From the sequence record MK373793.1: 43,157 nucleotides of DNA; one strand, 5' to 3'. Positions 3,112-39,297 of this stretch are shown here, one piece after another (position 1 is the stretch's first letter; each line of letters begins with the position of its first letter). The translations under genes were made by a program, and so were the position numbers. The notes under the pieces were generated by a model. The model saw only the letters and a program-made list of their open reading frames with translations. It was not told the DNA's origin and made no database searches. This DNA is from Escherichia phage vB_EcoS_MM01.

Positions 3112-3388
3112 ATTGGATTGTTAAAAAAGAGCTTGCATCACTGATTGGAAGTATCTAATATTAATCACGTAGACAGACGAGACCACTAAGTGGTAACGGC
3201 GCACGGAGCGCAACTACTAAGTCCGTAGCTCATTAGGTAGCGTATGCGGCAAATCACTTCCCATTATGAGCTTTATTCTCTTAGGGACTTGTAAGACCTA
3301 GCGCAAATAGTCAATCAAATCGGTCGTAACAAGCGACGCTGGAGCCGTAACCAGCAATCTTCATCTAGCAAGCCTAGCTAAAGATTAT

Positions 3389-8910: not shown

Positions 8911-9471
8911 ATGTTATTCGAAAAAGAAGTAGAAGTTGCGAACCTTGGTTATAATTCTGGTAATTCCCTTATTGATCAGGTTAATGAAGAATTATCAAAT
9001 CTTGTTGATTCAGGTTATAAATTTACATACAACTTCAGAAATGAATTGGATATTTCCTATTGGGAGATTGGTAATCAAAAGACAGGTCTAGTTGAATTAT
9101 CTGGTTTGGCAGTTAGGCATTTAGGGCTTTCAAAGAACGGTTTTAATGAGTTATCAGAGATTAAGATTTTCTCTTTTGAGTATGGCGTTGATTACTCTAC
9201 TGATGATGATATTGCTCGCATTACTGATGAAATTTTCGACAAAAAAGGGTACGTGCCATTATCTAGCAAGCTATTCAGTGCTACCATAGTTGATGAGTCA
9301 AACAAAACAAAACGCTCAGTATTGGAAGGTGGAAAGTATGTAACATACTATTCACCATCATACAAAAGAATTTTTATGTTGATAGCTGGGAAGCCAAAAA
9401 CAAAAGAACTAGAAACCAAAAAATCTGGATGGGCTTTGGTTAAGTATGAAGAAGTAGAAGCGCCAGAGTAA
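8911..9471 (+). CDS. orphan moron protein (186 aa), AT-rich
   Basis: ORF track; strong RBS; visibly lower GC than flanking head genes; bracketed by two terminators. Confidence 0.55.
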   Translation: MLFEKEVEVANLGYNSGNSLIDQVNEELSNLVDSGYKFTYNFRNELDISYWEIGNQKTGLVELSGLAVRHLGLSKNGFNELSEIKIFSFEYGVDYSTDDDIARITDEIFDKKGYVPLSSKLFSATIVDESNKTKRSVLEGGKYVTYYSPSYKRIFMLIAGKPKTKELETKKSGWALVKYEEVEAPE

Positions 9472-9554: not shown

Positions 9555-11096
9555 ATGGCTTTAGAATTTAGGCAAATCCTTGCTGGTAACACAGCATCAC
9601 TTAGCCGTAAGGTGCTAGAGGCAATTGCGGAAGGTTGGCAGCCATTTGATAGAGTCCTGACCGGTACTGGATCTAATACCATTGGCATGGTTGTAGCCAA
9701 GGGAACCAATGCAGACATTACCGATTTCATGGTTCTTACTGCCACCAGTCGTCAAAAGCTAATTGATAGAGTAAACGATATCACTCACGAAGGTTGGGAG
9801 GTGTTTGGCGAACCGTCATCTGAGTCAAATCAGTTTGCAGTTGCGTTAACTAAAGGATTTCAGGGTACATCCGGTAGAGATGGAATGGCTGGCCCACAAG
9901 GTCCGCAAGGTCCGCGCGGAGAGGTTGGCCCAGAAGGTCCGCAGGGTCCAAAAGGTGACGATGGTACGCCTGGTGAAAAGGGTGAGCGTGGCGCTGTAGG
10001 TCCGCAAGGACCAATTGGCCCACAGGGCATTCAAGGTCCGCAAGGAATTCAAGGTCCAGCTGGCTTAAAGGGTGATAAGGGCGATAGGGGTGATGTTGGA
10101 CCGCAAGGGACGCAAGGATTAAAAGGTGATACTGGCGAGAAAGGAGACCCTGGCGAAGTCGGGCCTGCTGGTTTAACATTCCGTGGGCAATGGGTTCCTA
10201 GCACTGGTTATACAAAAGATGACACTGTAGTTTACGGCGGCTCAACCTACTTCGCAGTTAGCAACATTGCAGAAGATGAGGAACCTGGAGTATCACCTCT
10301 GTGGGTTGTTCTTGCCGCTCAGGGTACGAAAGGTGATAAGGGTGATAAGGGTGACCCTGGTGATATCGGTCCTCAAGGTGAAAAAGGAGAAACAGGACAG
10401 CAGGGCCCAAGAGGGGTTCAGGGGCAACAAGGTATTCAAGGTTTACCAGGCGAACAGGGGCCAAAAGGTGATCAAGGATTGCAAGGAATTACTGGACCAG
10501 CCGGTCCTCAAGGACCAAAAGGTGACACTGGACCTCAGGGTATTCAAGGTCCACAAGGGATTAGAGGGGTTGCTGGAGCGGTAGGACCACAAGGACCACA
10601 GGGAGAGAGGGGCGAAAAGGGCGATAAAGGAGAAAAAGGCGAAACTGGCGCAACCGGCCCACAGGGTCCAGCAGGTCAAAATAATACAAACAATCCAGTT
10701 TATACAACTCAACTTACCGTATCGACAAGCTACTCAGCTATAGCTATACCAAACAACCCTGGCATCTCTTTTTCAGTCAGAAGGGTTGGGAATAACATTG
10801 AGTACTCTTTTGTAGGCAACTCAATTGCAGGAAGGTATTTTGATGTTGAGGTTGTAAACTTTCCATCTGCTGACGTAGTTAAGAGATATCAGTCAAACCA
10901 CACAATTGCAGGAACTAGCAGGTATGTTGTAGGTGATCCTGCTGGTTATACTGGTGGTGGATATAAAAGAATTCAATTCTCAGCTAGAGATTGGGGAGAT
11001 AAAAACATTATAATGATTGATGTTTTTCACCTTCAGCGCCCAGCTGATACTAGTTTTAACATCGCAATTAGGATTGAGACATTCAAGCTGCCATAA
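9555..11096 (+). CDS. collagen-like repeat protein (putative head or tail fibre)
   Basis: 513 aa; two long Gly-X-Y blocks (approx. aa 107-196 and 248-360) flanking a globular insert, plus non-collagenous N- and C-terminal domains. Confidence 0.8.
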
Positions 11097-14113: not shown

Positions 14114-14788
14114 TTGAATTGGAGGTGTATTATTGCTCATTTATCAAATGGCACGCAGGTCTTCGTAGAAGGCTCTCGCGGAGCTGTAATTGACGTAACT
14201 GCAATTTCTAACGCAGTTACCCCTGTTTTAACTGTATCTGATGCGTCCGGCCTGGTTGTTGGTGACTATCTTCTGTTTACCGCTTCAGCTTCCACGCTAC
14301 TTGCTGACAAGCAAGTTCGAGTAACGGCAATCACTGGCACTTCAGTAACTGTTGAAGGTATTGATACCTCTAGTACTACAAAGTTCCCAGCTGGTTTAAC
14401 TGGTGAAGTTGTCAAGATTACTTCCTGGTTCGAAGTTCCTTGCGTTCAGGATGTATCTACTGATGGTGGCGAACAGCAATTCGTTAACTTCCAGTGTCTT
14501 TCTGACGACCGTGAACAGCAGATTCCTACTTATAAGTCTGCGGTAACGAATACCTTCACCTTTGCTCATGAGTACACTAACCCGGTTTATCCGGTTCTGC
14601 GTAACTACGATGAGTCAGGTCAGGTTGTTGCGATTCGTCTGTTCGTCCCTCGCGCACAGGAAATGCGTTTACAGTCCGGCACTATCGCTTTCAACGACAC
14701 GCCAACCATTGGCGTTAACGAAATCGAAACCGTATCAATTGCTGTATCCATTCGTGGTCGACTGTCCTCGGTTGCTGCTGAAGTCTAA
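14114..14788 (+). CDS. major tail protein
   Basis: 224 aa before chaperone and tape-measure genes; start uncertain (track TTG 14114; GGAGGTG RBS at 14121-14127 suggests in-frame ATT at 14129/14132). Confidence 0.6.
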   Translation: MNWRCIIAHLSNGTQVFVEGSRGAVIDVTAISNAVTPVLTVSDASGLVVGDYLLFTASASTLLADKQVRVTAITGTSVTVEGIDTSSTTKFPAGLTGEVVKITSWFEVPCVQDVSTDGGEQQFVNFQCLSDDREQQIPTYKSAVTNTFTFAHEYTNPVYPVLRNYDESGQVVAIRLFVPRAQEMRLQSGTIAFNDTPTIGVNEIETVSIAVSIRGRLSSVAAEV

Positions 14789-14792
14789 AAAC

Positions 14793-14816
14793 AAACCCTC
14801 TTCGGAGGGTTTTTTA
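14793..14816 (+). terminator. rho-independent terminator
   Basis: ccctc-ttcg-gaggg hairpin plus T6. Confidence 0.65.
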
Positions 14817-14819
14817 TTG

Positions 14820-14839
14820 CATAGCACTTTTTGCTAAAG
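14820..14839 (+). repeat. junction motif A copy (catagcactttttgctaaag)
   Basis: motif A followed by motif B atcgaaacga at 14871-14880 and ATG 14898. Confidence 0.6.
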
Positions 14840-14897
14840 CATAAATCAAAACATACTGTATAGTTACTTCATCGAAACGAAATAAAGGAATTAAGAA

Positions 14898-15284
14898 ATG
14901 AAAGTAATCATCGCAATTATGGCAACCCTGTTACTTGCTGGTTGCAACACAGACAAGGTTAAGACACTTAATGTTGATCTGACCTCAAATGAATGCAAGA
15001 ACATCGTATACAGCGCGACTGTTAACAATGAATCATTTACTCGGCTTTCATTCAAGCACCCGGAACTTAAAGAAGCTGTTATGTATGTGTCCCACATTGA
15101 GTGCACGAAATCTGTTAACAATTTTACACGTGGTGTTGTAATTGAACGCACTACAACATTGGCAAAGGTATCAAAGCCTAGTGACGCCTCAATTGAGATG
15201 GTTTATACTAAGCTATACAATTTAGAAGGTTTCGCTAAGGAAGTTGGCGAGAAGCTGGCTTACTCACGCGTTGTTATAAAATAA
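14898..15284 (+). CDS. lipoprotein (moron in tail module)
   Basis: N-terminal signal peptide with lipobox LLAGC; AT-rich; own motif A/B unit upstream. Confidence 0.7.
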   Translation: MKVIIAIMATLLLAGCNTDKVKTLNVDLTSNECKNIVYSATVNNESFTRLSFKHPELKEAVMYVSHIECTKSVNNFTRGVVIERTTTLAKVSKPSDASIEMVYTKLYNLEGFAKEVGEKLAYSRVVIK

Positions 15285-15302
15285 AACAGAGGATAAAACG
15301 AG

Positions 15303-15617
15303 ATGGCAAAGTTCAAACTTTCACTGGCAGCACTCCCTGACTTCAAGCTACCAGTAAAATTTAAGCTGGCTAACGACCAGGAAGTAGAAGTTATCTTTAC
15401 TGTCAAGCACAAGAAGACTTCTGAGCTTCAGGAGCTTTTACAGAAAGAAGAATTAAGCACTAAAGAACTAATCACGGCAATCGCATCTGATTGGGACCTT
15501 GAGGAAGAATTTAACGAAGATAACGTAAACGAGTTCGCAGACCTATTCCCTGCCTCAACGGTTGCGCTGACTACCGCTTATATGCAGGCGCTTGCTGGTC
15601 AGCGAGTAAAAAACTAA
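15303..15617 (+). CDS. tail assembly chaperone (lambda gpG-like)
   Basis: 104-aa ORF immediately upstream of tape measure gene; ends in slippery heptamer. Confidence 0.6.
   Translation: MAKFKLSLAALPDFKLPVKFKLANDQEVEVIFTVKHKKTSELQELLQKEELSTKELITAIASDWDLEEEFNEDNVNEFADLFPASTVALTTAYMQALAGQRVKN
15608..15614 (+). promoter_or_regulatory. -1 programmed ribosomal frameshift slippery site A_AAA_AAC
   Basis: heptamer AAAAAAC spans the last two sense codons of the G-like ORF; the -1 frame is open from 15614 into ORF 15626..15937. Confidence 0.55.
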
Positions 15618-15625
15618 AACGAGCG

Positions 15626-15937
15626 GTGTATCTACAGTACCAGTCAGAGCCAACTGATGCCGAACTGGAAGCTATTGGGATGCGCCGCTCTGATTACGAA
15701 GACGAAGAGCCTGAAGTTTTAAACTTCGACGAAAACATGATGAAAGCGTGGGACATTTATTGTTCAATGGCTACGCAGTGGAGAGTTGGAGCTAACGGAG
15801 CTACAGGGCTTGATTACAACGTGCTAAATTTCCTCTTTAGAGTGTATAATGTTTCTGAAGAAGAATTGGTGCTCAGCGATTTACGCATCCTTGAAGCTAA
15901 GGCTCTTGAGATGATGGATAACCTGAGAAAAAAATAA
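15626..15937 (+). CDS. frameshift extension of tail chaperone (gpT-like part of G-T fusion)
   Basis: -1 frame ORF contiguous with slippery site; conserved G/GT architecture upstream of tape measure. Confidence 0.55.
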   Translation: MYLQYQSEPTDAELEAIGMRRSDYEDEEPEVLNFDENMMKAWDIYCSMATQWRVGANGATGLDYNVLNFLFRVYNVSEEELVLSDLRILEAKALEMMDNLRKK

Positions 15938-15957
15938 CCCGCTTCGGCGGGTTTTCT
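15937..15957 (+). terminator. rho-independent terminator (leaky)
   Basis: cccgc-ttcg-gcggg hairpin plus TTTTCT. Confidence 0.5.
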
Positions 15958-19194: not shown

Positions 19195-19719
19195 ATGGAA
19201 GAAATGCGTAGAGTTTGCAAGAAGTGCGGGGTAGAGAAGATTCATTCAGAGTTCGCAAAGCATAAGCAGTGCATGTTTGGTATAACTCATGAATGTAGAG
19301 TTTGTGCACTTAAGAGGTCTCAATACAGAACGCCAGATAAGCTGGCAATGAAATCAGAATACGACAAGAGAAGATATGAGAGAAGTTCAAAAAGGCAGAA
19401 AATAGATAGGGAATCTGACCCAGCGAAATACAAACTTTCAACATACAAAAGCTTTGATAAAAAGAGAGGTCTCAATTCTGACATAGACTACGAATTTGTT
19501 CTAAATGCAATAGATTCACCTTGCTTTTATTGCGGATTAAAAGATAAGCAAAATGTTGGGTTAGATAGAATTGAAAACTCAATTGGTCACATGAAGTCAA
19601 ACGTAGTTCCGTGTTGCTCATTATGTAACATGACAAGGGGTGATAGATTTACTCATGAGGATTTTAAAGAGTTTATAGCACCTTCAATAGCTAAATTTAG
19701 AGAGGCAAATAAATGCTAA
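19195..19719 (+). CDS. HNH endonuclease (free-standing, putative homing endonuclease)
   Basis: Cys-rich zinc motifs CKKCG...CRVC and HNH core CFYCG...GLDRIEN...GH...CCSLCN; AT-rich; inserted between M-like and L-like tail genes. Confidence 0.7.
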   Translation: MEEMRRVCKKCGVEKIHSEFAKHKQCMFGITHECRVCALKRSQYRTPDKLAMKSEYDKRRYERSSKRQKIDRESDPAKYKLSTYKSFDKKRGLNSDIDYEFVLNAIDSPCFYCGLKDKQNVGLDRIENSIGHMKSNVVPCCSLCNMTRGDRFTHEDFKEFIAPSIAKFREANKC

Positions 19720-25230: not shown

Positions 25231-25277
25231 GTGATAGAATTGGCAAATGGATTTGCCTACTTCAATTGGAGATAATT

Positions 25278-25583
25278 ATGGCTGAGTATGGAATTGCAAC
25301 ATATGATGCAAATGGTAATTACAATAACTACGGGATTAAGCCGGTTACGGTTGTCGCGGTTGTTGATTTAGCGGCAGGTCAAACTTCCGGATCATACACA
25401 TACACAATACCTAGCGGTTATAAGGTTGGGTACTTTATAACGTTAGATGAGGGGGCAGTTAATAATGGCAGGTACATAGTGGCGAGTGGTAACTCTATAA
25501 CCATTGTTCCGGGAAATGCTGCCGCAGATGGTTACTACCCAGCGACTAAGTGTAAAATGGTAGTTTATTTGGAGAAAGTATAA
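25278..25583 (+). CDS. small tail-tip associated protein (paralogue 1)
   Basis: ATG 25278 with GGAG RBS (track start 25266 is TTG); N-terminus MAEYGIATYDANGN resembles next gene. Confidence 0.45.
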   Translation: MAEYGIATYDANGNYNNYGIKPVTVVAVVDLAAGQTSGSYTYTIPSGYKVGYFITLDEGAVNNGRYIVASGNSITIVPGNAAADGYYPATKCKMVVYLEKV

Positions 25584-26254
25584 TGGCAGATTATGGCGCG
25601 ATAATTGATGTTAACGGAAACCCATTCATCACCCCCGCTTCAACTCCTTTTTGTCTTTACCGAAAGTATACTTTTCAGTCTTCGGGTGATTCTGCGGCGC
25701 ACAGTGTAACTCAATACTTACCTTTCAATTCAAGCTATCCAGTTAGCGTTTTCATTAAAACAAGCGCGCCAGGACAAGGTGTGGCAGTGATAGCATACAA
25801 CATAACAGAAGGTCCAAACGCAGGAACAATATATATAAATGGCACAAACTATGCGGGTCAATCATTCACATTGACGGCCTATGTTTTCGCTATATTCCCG
25901 CAAAATCTGCCAGATTGGGGAATGGCGATATGGGATGCGAAAGGCGATCTTGTACTGACCAACGAGAGCAAGGTGCTAAGCGACCTTTTTACTGTTAATG
26001 GAAGAGGTATAGATATTGACTCAACTTATCAAGGCAGCGTTGCGGTTTGCCCAGCGGCACTTGGCGCCCTTAACGTTTACCAGGTCCAGAATGGACAGCA
26101 AATAATAAGGTCCGCTACTGCTGGCGTTTCCTGTAGGTACAATGGATCAACAACAAGAATAAATGCAGTTCCATTGATAAACGGAACGCAGGCGTCAGGA
26201 GGAACAACCAACGGAGCAAGGGTTACGGCAATTTATACAGCAGCATACGACTAA
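25583..26254 (+). CDS. small tail-tip associated protein (paralogue 2)
   Basis: 223 aa, N-terminus MADYGAIIDVNGNP; ATGA-coupled to previous gene. Confidence 0.45.
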   Translation: MADYGAIIDVNGNPFITPASTPFCLYRKYTFQSSGDSAAHSVTQYLPFNSSYPVSVFIKTSAPGQGVAVIAYNITEGPNAGTIYINGTNYAGQSFTLTAYVFAIFPQNLPDWGMAIWDAKGDLVLTNESKVLSDLFTVNGRGIDIDSTYQGSVAVCPAALGALNVYQVQNGQQIIRSATAGVSCRYNGSTTRINAVPLINGTQASGGTTNGARVTAIYTAAYD

Positions 26255-26279: not shown

Positions 26280-26501
26280 TCAACCTCCACAATCGTGGTC
26301 TTTGAAATTCCGGTCAGAGACGTACTGAAATGAGAATGGATATCCAGCCCTAAGTAAAAGCTCCTCACCGCGTTTCTGCGTACCAAAAATATAAACCGAG
26401 TAATTCATCCCGCCTGACTCATAAACAGCCGTACAAGTGCGTTCTGGCATCGTAGAGCACCCACCTAACACCATTGCCGCGATAACGATTAATTTTTTCA
26501 T
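26280..26501 (-). CDS. lipoprotein (superinfection-exclusion candidate)
   Basis: internal ATG of track ORF 26280..26555 gives MKKLIVIAAMVLGGC lipobox; AGGTGA RBS. Confidence 0.65.
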   Translation of the reverse strand: MKKLIVIAAMVLGGCSTMPERTCTAVYESGGMNYSVYIFGTQKRGEELLLRAGYPFSFQYVSDRNFKDHDCGG

Positions 26502-26511
26502 CTTATTCACC

Positions 26512-26616
26512 TTAGAACCCTTTAAAGTTGGAAGCCAGAAGAAGAACCCAAACAAAGAAACCAGTTACAGCAGCGCCGAAGGTGAAGGCCATTACGTTGG
26601 TTGCGAAGTTAGTCAT
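26512..26616 (-). CDS. small membrane peptide (34 aa)
   Basis: MTNFATNVMAFTFGAAVTGFFVWVLLLASNFKGF; preceded on minus strand by motif A/B unit. Confidence 0.4.
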   Translation of the reverse strand: MTNFATNVMAFTFGAAVTGFFVWVLLLASNFKGF

Positions 26617-26681
26617 TTTTGAATCCTTAGTAAGTATTTTTCGTTTCGATGGAGTAATAGTACCGCATCCTTGCGGATTGT

Positions 26682-26701
26682 CTTTAGCAATTCGTGCTAT
26701 T
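26682..26701 (-). repeat. junction motif A copy (aatagcacgaattgctaaag on minus strand)
   Basis: supplies stop codon of upstream methyltransferase-like ORF; motif B at 26641-26650. Confidence 0.6.
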
Positions 26702-31675: not shown

Positions 31676-32182
31676 TCAAATCGTGCTGTTTTGCTCTGAC
31701 TCTCTCTTTTTCTTATTCTCTTCCTTAATCTTGCGCCATGATCTAGCAGGTGGTTTTTTTGCTAAATCCTCCTTCTTAACAACTCTAAGCATTTCTCGAC
31801 GGTCGCAACGCAATGTTAGTGGCTTACCGTTGCTATCAAATCGCAGATCAGGACGAATGAAGCTAGCTCTATATCCTTCGCCTGTACGCTTGTACTTTCC
31901 GTGCAGCTTCTGCGCGCCTTTCGCTGAGATCATTCCGCGCTTACACCACTCAGAAACTACTGCATGAGTCACATTGGCGGCTTTTGCTAGCTTCGATTTA
32001 CCGCCGTAGAAGTTAAGAACTATCTCAAGCCTTGCGCGTAAACTTGCTCGCACTTCATCCTTCAAAGTGTAGTAGCCATAAGGTCGACTACGTTCTTTCT
32101 TATCTTCGCCTCGCTGGGTTCCGTTATTTCCATTTAATGTACGCTTGTCCACTTCACCAGTTGATTCCGCGATTCTCGTCAT
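31676..32182 (-). CDS. HTH DNA-binding protein (Cro/YdaS-like, putative regulator)
   Basis: GGKSKLAKAANVTHAVVSEWCKRGMIS helix-turn-helix-like segment; basic termini. Confidence 0.45.
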   Translation of the reverse strand: MTRIAESTGEVDKRTLNGNNGTQRGEDKKERSRPYGYYTLKDEVRASLRARLEIVLNFYGGKSKLAKAANVTHAVVSEWCKRGMISAKGAQKLHGKYKRTGEGYRASFIRPDLRFDSNGKPLTLRCDRREMLRVVKKEDLAKKPPARSWRKIKEENKKKRESEQNSTI

Positions 32183-34278: not shown

Positions 34279-34698
34279 GTGAAGATTACAGATAAAGAAG
34301 ATTACATTGAGTTTTACCCAGGCGCTGTAAAGTCATGCCCAAAGGAGGATGACGAACAGATCTTTTGCTCTGATTGGGTTAAGTATCATTATCCGCAGAT
34401 TGTTTACTGGCATACAGTTAATGAAGGTATGAAATCAATTGGGTCAGCAAGGAAGGATGCAGCCAAGGGTTTGCTTAAGGGTGTATCAGATTGCTTATTC
34501 CTGATACCCGAATCGCTGCGTGGCAAGTACCCTTTCGGAGCTATAGAGTTAAAGAGAGCTGGCAAGACCCAGGCTAGTCCAGTCAGCGATGAACAAAGGT
34601 CTTTCCTTAAAAGCGTAAGAGAATCAGGCGGCTTCGCAGGTGTCGCATACGGGCGCGAAGGTTTTCTTGCAGCATTCAAAGAAATGATTTCAAAATAG
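34279..34698 (+). CDS. VRR-NUC domain nuclease (putative)
   Basis: 139 aa; PD-(D/E)xK-like DCLFL...GAIELK; GTG start coupled to helicase stop. Confidence 0.5.
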   Translation: MKITDKEDYIEFYPGAVKSCPKEDDEQIFCSDWVKYHYPQIVYWHTVNEGMKSIGSARKDAAKGLLKGVSDCLFLIPESLRGKYPFGAIELKRAGKTQASPVSDEQRSFLKSVRESGGFAGVAYGREGFLAAFKEMISK

Positions 34699-34713
34699 CA
34701 CTAATTGCTAAAG
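34694..34713 (+). repeat. junction motif A copy (aatagcactaattgctaaag)
   Basis: TAG stop of VRR-NUC gene lies within motif; motif B at 34745-34754; ATG 34777. Confidence 0.6.
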
Positions 34714-34776
34714 ACGTTTCGATGGGTTGGTGTATTATCTATTCATCGAAACGAAACACACAAAGAGAGAAAGAAA

Positions 34777-38444: not shown

Positions 38445-38935
38445 TGAGTACGCAAAGGGTAGTGATAGGCGTACTAACTGCGGGTGCTATAGGTATAGCC
38501 GCCCCTCTTATCGAAAAGGTGGAGGGTGTAGAGTACAAGCCTTATAAGGACATCGCTGGAATTTGGACTGTTTGCAGTGGTATTACTGGTCCTGATGTCA
38601 TCATTGGTAAAACATATACCAAATCAGAGTGCAGGAAATTGTTAACCAAGCACATAGCAATACACGGGAAATATGTTGAAGATGCCATTAAAGTTCCAGT
38701 ACATCCAAACACTCGAGCGGCGCTAATTAGCTTTAGCTACAATGTTGGCGGCAATGCAATGAGGAAGTCTACAGCTGTAAGGCTAATTAACAACGGAAAG
38801 ATTGAGCAGGGGTGTAAGGCGCTGAGTCTTTGGAATAAAGCCACCATTAACGGCAAGAAGGTTGTCGTTAAGGGGCTTGTTAATCGCAGGAATGAGGAGA
38901 TCAAGCTATGCTTAAGCGGCTTGCAGGGTTATTGA
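38444..38935 (+). CDS. SAR endolysin (lysozyme, phage 21 R-like)
   Basis: N-terminal Gly/Ala-rich signal-anchor VVIGVLTAGAIGIAAPLI then EGVEYKPYKDIAGIWTVCSGITG with Glu/Asp/Thr catalytic triad. Confidence 0.8.
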   Translation: MSTQRVVIGVLTAGAIGIAAPLIEKVEGVEYKPYKDIAGIWTVCSGITGPDVIIGKTYTKSECRKLLTKHIAIHGKYVEDAIKVPVHPNTRAALISFSYNVGGNAMRKSTAVRLINNGKIEQGCKALSLWNKATINGKKVVVKGLVNRRNEEIKLCLSGLQGY

Positions 38936-39297
38936 TGTTCGCGGCCTTATCTGGATGCTCGGCAACTGATGCGCTGACCGGGCTAATTGGCAGTAAGCCA
39001 GAAGTCACGGCACAGGTTGGTGCGGCTAACAATAAGGTTGGCGTTGGTGCTTCAGTTAGTAGCGACTCTAGCAACTCATCAGAGGCCACAGTAAGAGATT
39101 CAAAGGTTGGTAGCCTTGATAGCTCTAGCGGTAAAAAGACCTCTGACAATTCGATTAAGGCATCTACAATCACTGCAGAAAAGATTGAAATTACCAATAA
39201 CGAATCATCCGCGCTTCCGTGGATTGGAACAGGAGCTATGGGTCTGCTGGTTTTAATTCTCCTGGCCTTAATCTTAAGACGTAAAAAAGCCTCCTAA
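38908..39297 (+). CDS. unimolecular spanin (lipoprotein with C-terminal TMD)
   Basis: lipobox LSGC at N-terminus and C-terminal TM helix GLLVLILLALIL followed by RRKKAS. Confidence 0.6.
   Translation: MLKRLAGLLMFAALSGCSATDALTGLIGSKPEVTAQVGAANNKVGVGASVSSDSSNSSEATVRDSKVGSLDSSSGKKTSDNSIKASTITAEKIEITNNESSALPWIGTGAMGLLVLILLALILRRKKAS

Follow-up and report, generated by a model that had tools for sequence, protein, structure and literature searches.

A replaceable accessory lipoprotein gene behind a promoter-like unit in the tail operon of Escherichia phage vB_EcoS_MM01

Accessory lipoproteins are already a known kind of phage protein, and the small periplasmic lipoproteins of T1-, T5- and Rtp-type phages are exclusion factors (PMC12685063, PMC13164509). 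Rtp45, the exclusion factor of phage Rtp, is a 6-kDa lipoprotein that binds LptDE (PMC12685063), and Cor modules are associated with phages that target FhuA (PMC13164509). Here, we describe the gene MM01_00027 of Escherichia phage vB_EcoS_MM01, which is located at positions 14898-15284 of a 43,157-nt stretch of DNA (sequence record MK373793.1; the whole stretch is referred to as the window), and which encodes a homologue of rtp34 of phage Rtp. To our knowledge, the receptor-masking lipoproteins Cor and Rtp45 are the only exclusion factors characterised in T1-like phages. These phages are major contaminants in laboratories and fermentations, and they are common in phage-therapy collections. MM01 itself came from horse dung, and its publication passes over MM01_00027 without comment (PMC6563267). 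The homologues are named in databases either "hypothetical protein rtp34" or "Lipoprotein", and no treatment of rtp34 was found in the accessible literature.

Cor (phages T1, phi80 and N15), Llp (T5) and Rtp45 (Rtp) share several properties with the predicted product of MM01_00027, as they are small lipoproteins exported by the Sec and Lol pathways, contain a disulfide, and are accessory genes of virulent E. coli siphophages. The Cor or Rtp45 operon of MM01 and JeanPiccard also has upstream of it the promoter-like unit that precedes the lipoprotein gene in MM01. On the other hand, MM01_00027 has no sequence homology to these three proteins, its mature form is 12.7 kDa as compared to about 6-7 kDa, and its helical model has no fold hit. 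Its gene also lies away from the receptor-binding genes without co-varying with them, and the lipid anchor is dispensable in some members of its family. The second close comparison is with the lambdoid morons in the sense of Juhala and Hendrix, such as bor of lambda. As in these morons, an extra gene separates two genes that are neighbours in related phages, follows directly on a promoter-like element, appears to be dispensable and encodes an envelope protein. It differs from them in the lack of a compositional anomaly and in being carried by strictly virulent phages. It is also not an autonomous transcription unit, because it has no terminator of its own before the chaperone gene, and the upstream unit, which is common to all alleles at this site and to about a dozen other transcription units, is not specific to the cassette.

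Two further exclusion proteins are more distant analogues. Ltp of Streptococcus phage TP-J34 is a lipoprotein that is reported to bind the tape measure protein and thereby prevent the injection of DNA. As a membrane-tethered, extracytoplasmic, helical lipoprotein it is a plausible analogue for a block after adsorption, and there is also a likeness in position, as the MM01 gene lies just 5′ of the tape-measure chaperones and the tape measure gene. This link to the tape measure is purely positional and is absent in the homologues from Tempevirinae; moreover, Ltp comes from a temperate phage of Gram-positive bacteria, and no PDB fold matched the MM01 protein. Spackle (Sp) of T4 is a periplasmic exclusion protein, which is likewise small, exported, helical and present in the periplasm of the infected cell. 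In contrast to MM01_00027 it is not a lipoprotein, there is no sequence or structure match between the two, and we know of no tail lysozyme in T1-like phages that could serve as the target.

The lipoprotein gene and its slot

MM01 is an Rtp-like phage of the Braunvirinae (Drexlerviridae), and its nearest sequenced relatives, AugustePiccard (Bas01), Rtp and RobRod40, have about 88-90% DNA identity to it across this region. The preliminary description of the locus, which was made from the sequence of the window, had placed a 128-aa lipoprotein between the major tail protein gene and the G/GT chaperone genes, and both parts of this assignment held up. The open reading frame (ORF) starts with ATG, and the N-terminus MK-VIIAIMATLL-LAGC of its product has the positively charged n-region, the hydrophobic h-region and the lipobox LAGC, ending in Cys16, of a lipoprotein signal peptide; the Pfam LPAM_1 model gave 16.7 bits, which is under its 20-bit cut-off. 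The flanking genes were identified by the Phage_tail_3 domain on one side, and by the Phage_TAC_4 and DUF1799 domains, the slippery sequence A_AAA_AAC and the −1 frame on the other. MM01_00027 is 89% identical to rtp34. Comparison with Rtp and with the metagenomic relative L015 gave dN/dS values of 0.12-0.22 for the lipoprotein gene and 0.02-0.09 for the flanking genes, while the dS values of the lipoprotein gene were in the same range as those of its flanks. Because the homologues give these ratios, MM01_00027 is a real gene under purifying selection. The mature protein (113 aa, 12.7 kDa, pI 8.8) contains no hydrophobic or membrane segment. It is predicted to be lipidated at Cys16 and, because of the Asn at +2 (the +2 rule of E. 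coli), to be sorted to the inner leaflet of the outer membrane.

Two other elements of the preliminary description had to be revised. It counted the protein as the second lipoprotein of the phage, beside the spanin, yet it is the third lipobox ORF, as there is also a Cor-family gene at 26280-26501(−) in addition to the o-spanin gene at 38908-39297. It also described the gene as visibly more AT-rich than its neighbours and as acquired in the form of a cassette. The composition profile showed that the AT-richness is weak. The GC content of the gene is 0.395, as compared to 0.465 and 0.435 for its neighbours and to a mean of 0.430 ± 0.032 for 68 genes (z = −1.06, rank 10 of 68), and its GC3 of 0.403 (z = −0.23) is like that of the neighbours. 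A foreign origin was rejected on these values, and there is no compositional evidence for it. The lowest GC contents in the structural module, 0.342 and 0.362, belong to the genes 8911-9471(+) and 19195-19719(+), for which Pfam gave no match and of which neither Rtp nor JeanPiccard has a homologue. These two MM01-specific genes in the structural operon are better moron candidates by composition than the lipoprotein gene.

To see how this position is occupied in other phages, the junction between the tail-tube (major tail protein) gene and the chaperone gene was compared among relatives. In Rogunavirinae (Opt-719), Tempevirinae (haarsle, PeterMerian) and Webervirus (TAH8) the chaperone gene directly follows the tail-tube gene, with just a terminator and a short promoter-like spacer between them. 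An extra gene is present at this junction only in Braunvirinae, where it occurs in unrelated versions. The 128-aa rtp34 type was found in 4 of 50,697 phage records (3 phages), a 126-aa type with 31% identity occupies the slot of TR1, and an 82-88-aa protein (PHROG 22925; bas02_0014 of JeanPiccard, gp29 of EC3a) is located in the slot of 82 phage records. The latter (the 82-aa slot protein) shares with MM01_00027 the identical slot, terminator and upstream unit, the same phage group, and the character of a small envelope protein with two conserved Cys residues. It differs in having a membrane-helix or signal anchor rather than a lipobox, and in its model, which is a membrane helix with a helical hairpin carrying one Cys in each arm (modest confidence, pLDDT 65). 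Remote homology of the two families, suspected from a common I-M-K...C motif, was rejected, because BLASTP gave an E value of 0.14 and profile-profile comparison with hhalign a probability of 0.16%.

The boundaries of the exchange are sharp. Sliding-window identity of MM01 to JeanPiccard, ACG-M12 and BEK6 was 85-97% over the tail-tube gene, the terminator and the unit, then 20-45% over 14894-15300, and again 85-92% at the chaperone gene, which places the breakpoints of the cassette at the edges of the coding sequence (CDS). The comparison with TR1 showed a single breakpoint at the junction, with identities of 96% for the tail-tube protein, 31% for the slot protein and 70% for the chaperone. 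Divergence of the slot protein also far outpaces that of its flanks where the slot proteins are homologous, as in L015, with 69% identity for the slot protein and 93-97% for the flanking proteins. In the phages with the 82-aa allele the flanking proteins are 91-99% identical to those of MM01. Because 82 isolated phages with near-identical flanks carry an unrelated gene instead, the lipoprotein gene appears to be dispensable for lytic growth. Conservation of the gene at this position in all relatives would have spoken against a cassette; the survey found that it is not so conserved, because in some relatives it is absent, replaced or located elsewhere. Hence, the earlier proposal of a moron-like cassette gene is borne out by the subfamilies without it, the unrelated 82-aa replacement, the breakpoints at the CDS edges and the second locus described below. 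At the level of sequence comparison, the lipoprotein gene is shown to be an optional accessory gene, horizontally exchangeable or relocatable, in a hot-swap slot.

To determine the distribution of the family, three independent searches were made, one with a single sequence, one as an exhaustive HMMER scan over 1.84 billion representatives and one with a profile of the mature domain; together they covered 5.8 billion proteins. The data showed about 30 clusters at 90% identity, all from T1-like phages, on contigs that were all of phage-genome size or smaller (up to ~51 kb), and no host homologue of MM01_00027. The members are 124-144 aa long, with the exception of one truncated 87-aa sequence; the 679-aa RCC1-like repeat protein P0015 was rejected as a compositional artefact. 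Three clades can be distinguished. Two of them, the Rtp34 type and the TR1 type, are found in the tail slot (L004, L008, L014, L015, L016, L019), and the third clade, with proteins of 139-144 aa, is located directly 3′ of the helicase and VRR-NUC genes in Tempevirinae, for example BEK12A (Warwickvirus), and in metagenomic contigs. This second locus is syntenic with the window at ~34.7 kb, where MM01 has only small cytoplasmic ORFs.

The sequences of the family point to the part of the protein on which selection acts. The invariant residues are K22, N31, C33, N35, C69, T77, V102 and A121, and the invariance of the two cysteines suggests a C33-C69 disulfide in the periplasm. The lipobox is retained in all inspected sequences except P0014 and P0069. 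The N-terminus of P0014 is hydrophobic but has no lipobox Cys, the +2 residue of P0018 is Asp, and P0069 (metagenomic, 141 aa) is a natural chimera, in which a mature domain of the TR1 type follows the membrane anchor of an 88-aa slot protein of the ACG-M12 type. The last sequence is direct evidence of recombination inside the slot, between two unrelated alleles and at the boundary of signal and mature domain. Since the anchors vary among these three proteins, the comparison shows that the membrane-tethered periplasmic domain is the conserved functional entity, and that the export signal is interchangeable.

The AlphaFold2 model of MM01_00027 (pLDDT 85.6, pTM 0.76) consists of five helices and a small three-stranded sheet, with ~5 residues between the lipidated Cys and the first strand. 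Foldseek found no meaningful match in the PDB (best E 1.6), and the structure search of BFVD returned only MM01_00027 itself. The family profile matched no chain at E < 0.2 among all PDB sequences, including the Rtp45 and Llp entries, while the results from Pfam, PHROGs, NCBIfam and PADLOC were limited to signal-peptide matches below threshold and weak PHROG hits without annotation. Because the family, profile and fold libraries gave no match, the protein is a fold orphan without detectable kinship to Cor, Llp, Rtp45, Spackle or Ltp.

To analyze whether the slot allele follows the choice of receptor, it was compared with the receptor module, from which the lipoprotein gene is ~10 kb upstream. 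MM01 has a T1-type module (25266-26254(+), two + strand genes after gpJ), which is 54% identical to that of T1 and 79% identical to that of JulesPiccard, and which is also present in RobRod40. Its Cor protein is essentially unrelated to Rtp45, and the Rtp44/Rtp45 module of the LptD type, found in Rtp, is missing from MM01. Since the T1-type/Cor module is present instead, MM01 may use a terminal receptor other than that of Rtp. AugustePiccard (rtp34 type) and JeanPiccard (Bas02, 82-aa type) both have an Rtp44/45-type module, and both use LptD (PMC8594841). MM01 and RobRod40 combine the rtp34 type with the T1/Cor-type module, and JulesPiccard combines this module with the 82-aa allele. Because all four combinations of allele and module exist, the slot allele is independent of terminal-receptor specificity. 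A link of the slot allele to LptD and Rtp45 was rejected for the same reason, as JeanPiccard with the 82-aa allele also uses LptD, and MM01 and RobRod40 carry the T1/Cor-type module.

The promoter-like unit upstream of the slot

The preliminary description had the gene bracketed by a strong terminator and a "motif A/B unit". Both elements exist (14793-14812 and 14820-14883), but both are located 5′ of the gene; on the 3′ side there are only 18 nt, which contain the chaperone ribosome-binding site (RBS) and no terminator. The terminator, with its 8-bp stem, UUCG loop and U-run (dG −11.5 kcal/mol, z −3.98), has the same sequence in Rtp, JeanPiccard and EC3a. The junction holds no known RNA element, as the search of Rfam gave no family match and only a sub-threshold hit of rsmX to the terminator hairpin (24.8 versus 56 bits).

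The unit is built in a fixed register. Motif A is followed by 21 variable nucleotides, which often include a short hairpin, then by a −10-like TATNNT sequence, 6 nt, and the sequence ATCGAAACGAG, with the RBS and start codon within a further ~10-25 nt. In the window, motif A in the form TAGCAC-N5-TGYTAA has 22 matches (~15 distinct sites), as compared to 2.7 expected by chance, and at seven sites motif B (ATCGAAACGA) follows with its start exactly 49 nt from that of motif A. The motif A starts are at 1330, 2799, 14822, 27868, 32196, 34696, 37029 and 37824 on the + strand, and at 26699, 39659, 42245 and 43115 on the − strand, and the units are always oriented toward the next gene. There are ~12 units in the MM01 genome, 14 copies in Rtp and 13 in JeanPiccard. 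The copy at 14822 is the only well-formed one in the structural module, where a degenerate motif A match with one mismatch was found at 3366. The other units of MM01 precede the Cor operon (26699, −), the genes for the Erf-like recombinase, the helicase and an HNH protein, the gene in front of the lysis cassette, and small genes that point leftward. In Rtp and JeanPiccard several units lie directly 5′ of free-standing HNH homing endonuclease genes inserted in the structural operon, and one in JeanPiccard lies 5′ of the Rtp45-like operon.

These properties make the A/B unit look like a promoter family with a conserved transcript 5′ end, and the leader predicted from 14871 is unstructured. A plain σ70 reading was rejected, because TTGCTA in motif A is separated from the −10-like hexamer by a 22-nt spacer, and a σ54 reading was rejected on spacing as well (AG-N8-GC rather than GG-N10-GC). 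Because TTGCTA is too far from the hexamer for an ordinary σ70 −35 element, we infer that a factor bound at the motif A palindrome is more likely. The conserved helix-turn-helix (HTH) protein encoded at 31676-32182(−), between the primase and helicase genes, has weak Cro/CI/YdaS-like Pfam hits and is a homologue of rtp52 ("transcriptional regulator"); it is a candidate for binding the TAGCA-N5-TGCTA palindrome. Separately, at the tail-tube/chaperone junction of the Tempevirinae haarsle (L010 2155-2280) and PeterMerian (L011 2158-2283) an inverted motif A (TTAACAAAAAGTGCTAT) separates a −10-like box from the RBS of the chaperone gene, which is a different geometry that looks more like an operator.

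The preliminary description had assigned this junction element to the lipoprotein gene as its own. The same terminator and unit precede every allele of the tail slot (Rtp, JeanPiccard, EC3a, BEK6, ACG-M12, TR1), the unit is one of about 12-14 copies in each genome, and a motif A unit is also located 5′ of the Tempevirinae rtp34-family homologues at their other locus. Since the unit stands ahead of all these genes, it is not a private element of the lipoprotein gene. Instead, the A/B unit is a putative general expression and recombination junction of this phage group, with accessory genes landing directly behind it. The first genes behind the units were less conserved than other genes between MM01 and Rtp or JeanPiccard (mean score 40.7 versus 62.2; one-sided Mann-Whitney p = 0.037), which is suggestive only. 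No description of the unit was found in the accessible literature, nor one of its link to the lipoprotein gene, the sharply bounded hot-swap slot, the second locus of the family, the chimeric anchors, the independence from receptor type, or the orphan fold.

Possible functions of the lipoprotein

The explanation that we prefer as a whole, which is that of an accessory envelope lipoprotein expressed from the unit and serving as a factor in competition between phages, has in our judgment a little less than an even chance of being correct. In this explanation, the unit (TAGCA-N5-TGCTA box, TATAGT, and 5′ end ATCGAAACGA) would restart transcription just past the tail-tube terminator, near 14871. 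The product would be a short lipoprotein-G-GT message that has an unstructured leader and a good RBS and ends at 15936-15953; transcripts reading through the terminator could add to it. Units of this kind would also drive the Cor operon, the replication genes and the free-standing HNH genes. After export by Sec and lipidation at Cys16, the 12.7-kDa, mostly helical, soluble domain would be held in the periplasm on a tether of ~5 residues. Its function could, tentatively, be phage-versus-phage competition at the envelope, by exclusion or immunity, without masking of the terminal receptor of the phage itself, a task that belongs to Cor or Rtp45. The protein would then either act in the periplasm on a step that follows adsorption or target a different component of the envelope, and the same niche would be filled in an alternative way by the unrelated 82-aa envelope protein. 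Such a function is favoured by the precedent of phage lipoproteins, the faster evolution of the protein, its replacement by another envelope protein, the type of promoter shared with the Cor operon, and the independence from the receptor module. Fast protein evolution at a dS like that of the flanks would be expected of a gene under conflict.

Several observations weigh against this explanation. The family, profile and fold searches detected no sequence or fold similarity to any known exclusion protein. MM01 already has a canonical Cor, and the need for a second exclusion factor is not obvious. The suggestion of a candidate exclusion factor in the preliminary description is complicated both by this Cor and by a slot allele that does not follow the receptor module. 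The dN/dS ratio is well under 1, which gives no direct signal of positive selection, and within the Rtp-type phages the gene looks vertically inherited, with dS like that of its flanks. The unit is a putative promoter, in which the distance of 22 nt between TTGCTA and the −10-like hexamer does not fit a plain σ70 promoter. Finally, a location in the envelope suits several other roles equally well.

One of these roles, which we consider doubtful, is that of a host-envelope modulator or counter-defence factor, whose periplasmic domain would bind a host envelope protein or polymer. It could, for example, blunt an envelope-based defence or stress response, reduce the number of vesicle or debris decoys, or condition the envelope for release. 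The evidence on localisation suits this role too, as do the accessory, fast-evolving nature of the gene, its independence of the receptor module and the conservation of the polar residues K22, N31, N35 and T77. The searches that left the protein an orphan speak against it, as neither PADLOC nor the other family collections gave a match and no host homologue was found among the 5.8 billion proteins, and such a factor is without known precedent in T1-like phages. A factor that times or protects lysis is quite improbable. It could be a sensor of the antiholin kind, modulate the spanin, or inhibit a muralytic enzyme as T4 Spackle inhibits the gp5 lysozyme. A small, helical, probably disulfide-bonded protein in the periplasm would resemble Spackle and RI of T4, and the Tempevirinae homologue is located ~2-3 kb upstream of the holin-endolysin cassette. 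In MM01 and Rtp, in contrast, the gene is far from the lysis genes, no solved structure matched the fold, and phages without the gene lyse normally with the same set of holin, SAR-endolysin and spanin.

A receptor-masking exclusion lipoprotein of the Cor/Llp/Rtp45 type, which would block the terminal receptor of MM01 itself, is even less probable. With its predicted place in the outer membrane, its very short tether and its probable disulfide, the lipoprotein is similar to Llp and Rtp45 (PMC12685063), and its unit is of the type that precedes the Cor operon. The bona fide Cor gene is, however, already present beside the receptor-binding genes, the NCBIfam Cor model misses MM01_00027, which has no homology to Cor, Rtp45 or Llp, and the mature protein is twice the size of these. 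The allele also does not co-vary with the receptor module, as both Bas01 and Bas02 use LptD and both MM01 and RobRod40 have the T1/Cor type, and some family members have non-lipoprotein or Asp+2 anchors. A role in tail morphogenesis or as a virion component, although it would suit the position beside the chaperones in the tail operon and the probable co-transcription with G/GT, is already close to refuted, and the lipoprotein is shown to be, as far as comparison of genomes can tell, not a tail component, because its signal peptide and lipobox predict export whereas tails assemble in the cytoplasm, the gene is missing or replaced in most phages with near-identical tail genes and missing from three subfamilies, and homologues reside in the replication region of other phages.

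The envelope-level competition that we favour could be given a more specific form, which we regard as unlikely. The rtp34 and 82-aa families would be alternative "immunity types" of a so far unrecognised, receptor-independent exclusion system in Braunvirinae, with periplasmic effectors that work from either membrane. They would keep the genome of a rival T1-like phage from entering once this phage has adsorbed, for example by trapping the tape measure or tail-tip proteins that it ejects. These types would be exchanged in the hot-swap slot, and the A/B unit would be a portable adaptor through which mobile accessory genes in general are expressed, including homing endonuclease genes and the Cor operon.

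Beside Cor or Rtp45, the slot thus gives Rtp, a well-studied phage, and its relatives a second, unrelated envelope protein, which behaves as an exchangeable allele and is independent of the choice of receptor. If it excludes or handicaps competitors, this would affect the design of phage cocktails, as co-infecting relatives may block each other unexpectedly, and a new fold would be added to the small set of periplasmic exclusion effectors. The two unrelated alleles, the anchor chimeras and the two genomic slots form a natural comparison set, and the promoter-like unit is a lead into the largely unknown transcription programme of T1-like phages.

Features of the locus and neighbouring genes

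Table 1. Positions of the lipoprotein gene, the upstream unit and related features in the window
Feature	Position	Strand	Remarks
Major tail (tail-tube) protein gene	14114-14788		Pfam Phage_tail_3, E 3.8e-68
Intrinsic terminator AAACCCTC-UUCG-GAGGGTTT with U-run	14793-14812	+	3′ of the major tail protein gene
Motif A/B unit ahead of the lipoprotein gene	14820-14883		
Motif A TAGCACTTTTTGCTAA, inverted repeat TAGCA-N5-TGCTA	14822-14837	+	Centre ~42 nt upstream of the putative transcript start
−10-like hexamer TATAGT	14859-14864	+	Putative; fixed 21 nt past motif A, register common to ~10 units
Motif B ATCGAAACGAA	14871-14881	+	Starts 49 nt past the motif A start; putative conserved transcript 5′ end
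RBS AAGGA of MM01_00027	14885-14889	+	8 nt ahead of ATG; read in the sequence
CDS of MM01_00027, 128-aa prolipoprotein, rtp34 homologue	14898-15284	+	ATG ORF
Signal peptide and lipobox (MKVIIAIMATLLLAG/C)	14898-14945	+	Cys16 codon 14943-14945, Asn at +2
Cys33 in N-x-C-x-N motif	14994-14996	+	Invariant in all clades; presumed disulfide partner of Cys69
Cys69	15102-15104	+	Invariant in all clades
RBS GAGGA of the chaperone gene	15289-15293	+	Approximate 3′ cassette boundary; homology to phages with the 82-aa allele resumes
Tail assembly chaperone, G-like	15303-15617	+	Phage_TAC_4
Slippery heptamer A_AAA_AAC	15608-15614	+	Canonical; directly ahead of the chaperone stop codon; −1 frameshift into the DUF1799 frame (GT-like product)
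DUF1799 ORF, T part of G/GT	15626-15937	+	−1 frame
First terminator 3′ of the lipoprotein gene	15936-15953	+	Probable end of the unit-initiated transcript
Cor-family exclusion lipoprotein, 73 aa	26280-26501	−	NCBIfam lamb_exclu_cor, E 6.8e-13, 48.4 bits versus 31-bit cut-off
36-aa membrane ORF	26512-26622	−	In the Cor operon behind an A/B unit
Motif A of the Cor-operon unit	26684-26699	−	
A/B unit after the VRR-NUC gene	34696-34757	+	Position of the diverged rtp34-family lipoprotein in Tempevirinae (BEK12A, L006, L018)
o-spanin, lipobox ORF	38908-39297		

The chaperone gene that follows the lipoprotein gene is probably co-transcribed with it. PHROG 17368 spans both chaperone ORFs as a single protein, and in public annotations of relatives these two ORFs are listed apart and labelled "tail length tape measure protein".

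The head module of MM01 contains another inserted gene, 9555-11096(+), which is located between the 8375-8872 gene and the major capsid gene, and which is absent from Rtp and JeanPiccard. Its 513-aa product has collagen triple-helix repeats (Pfam Collagen, E 2e-36) and a DUF1737 domain. This gene is probably MM01_00019, the "putative tail fibre of unclear function" of Korf et al.

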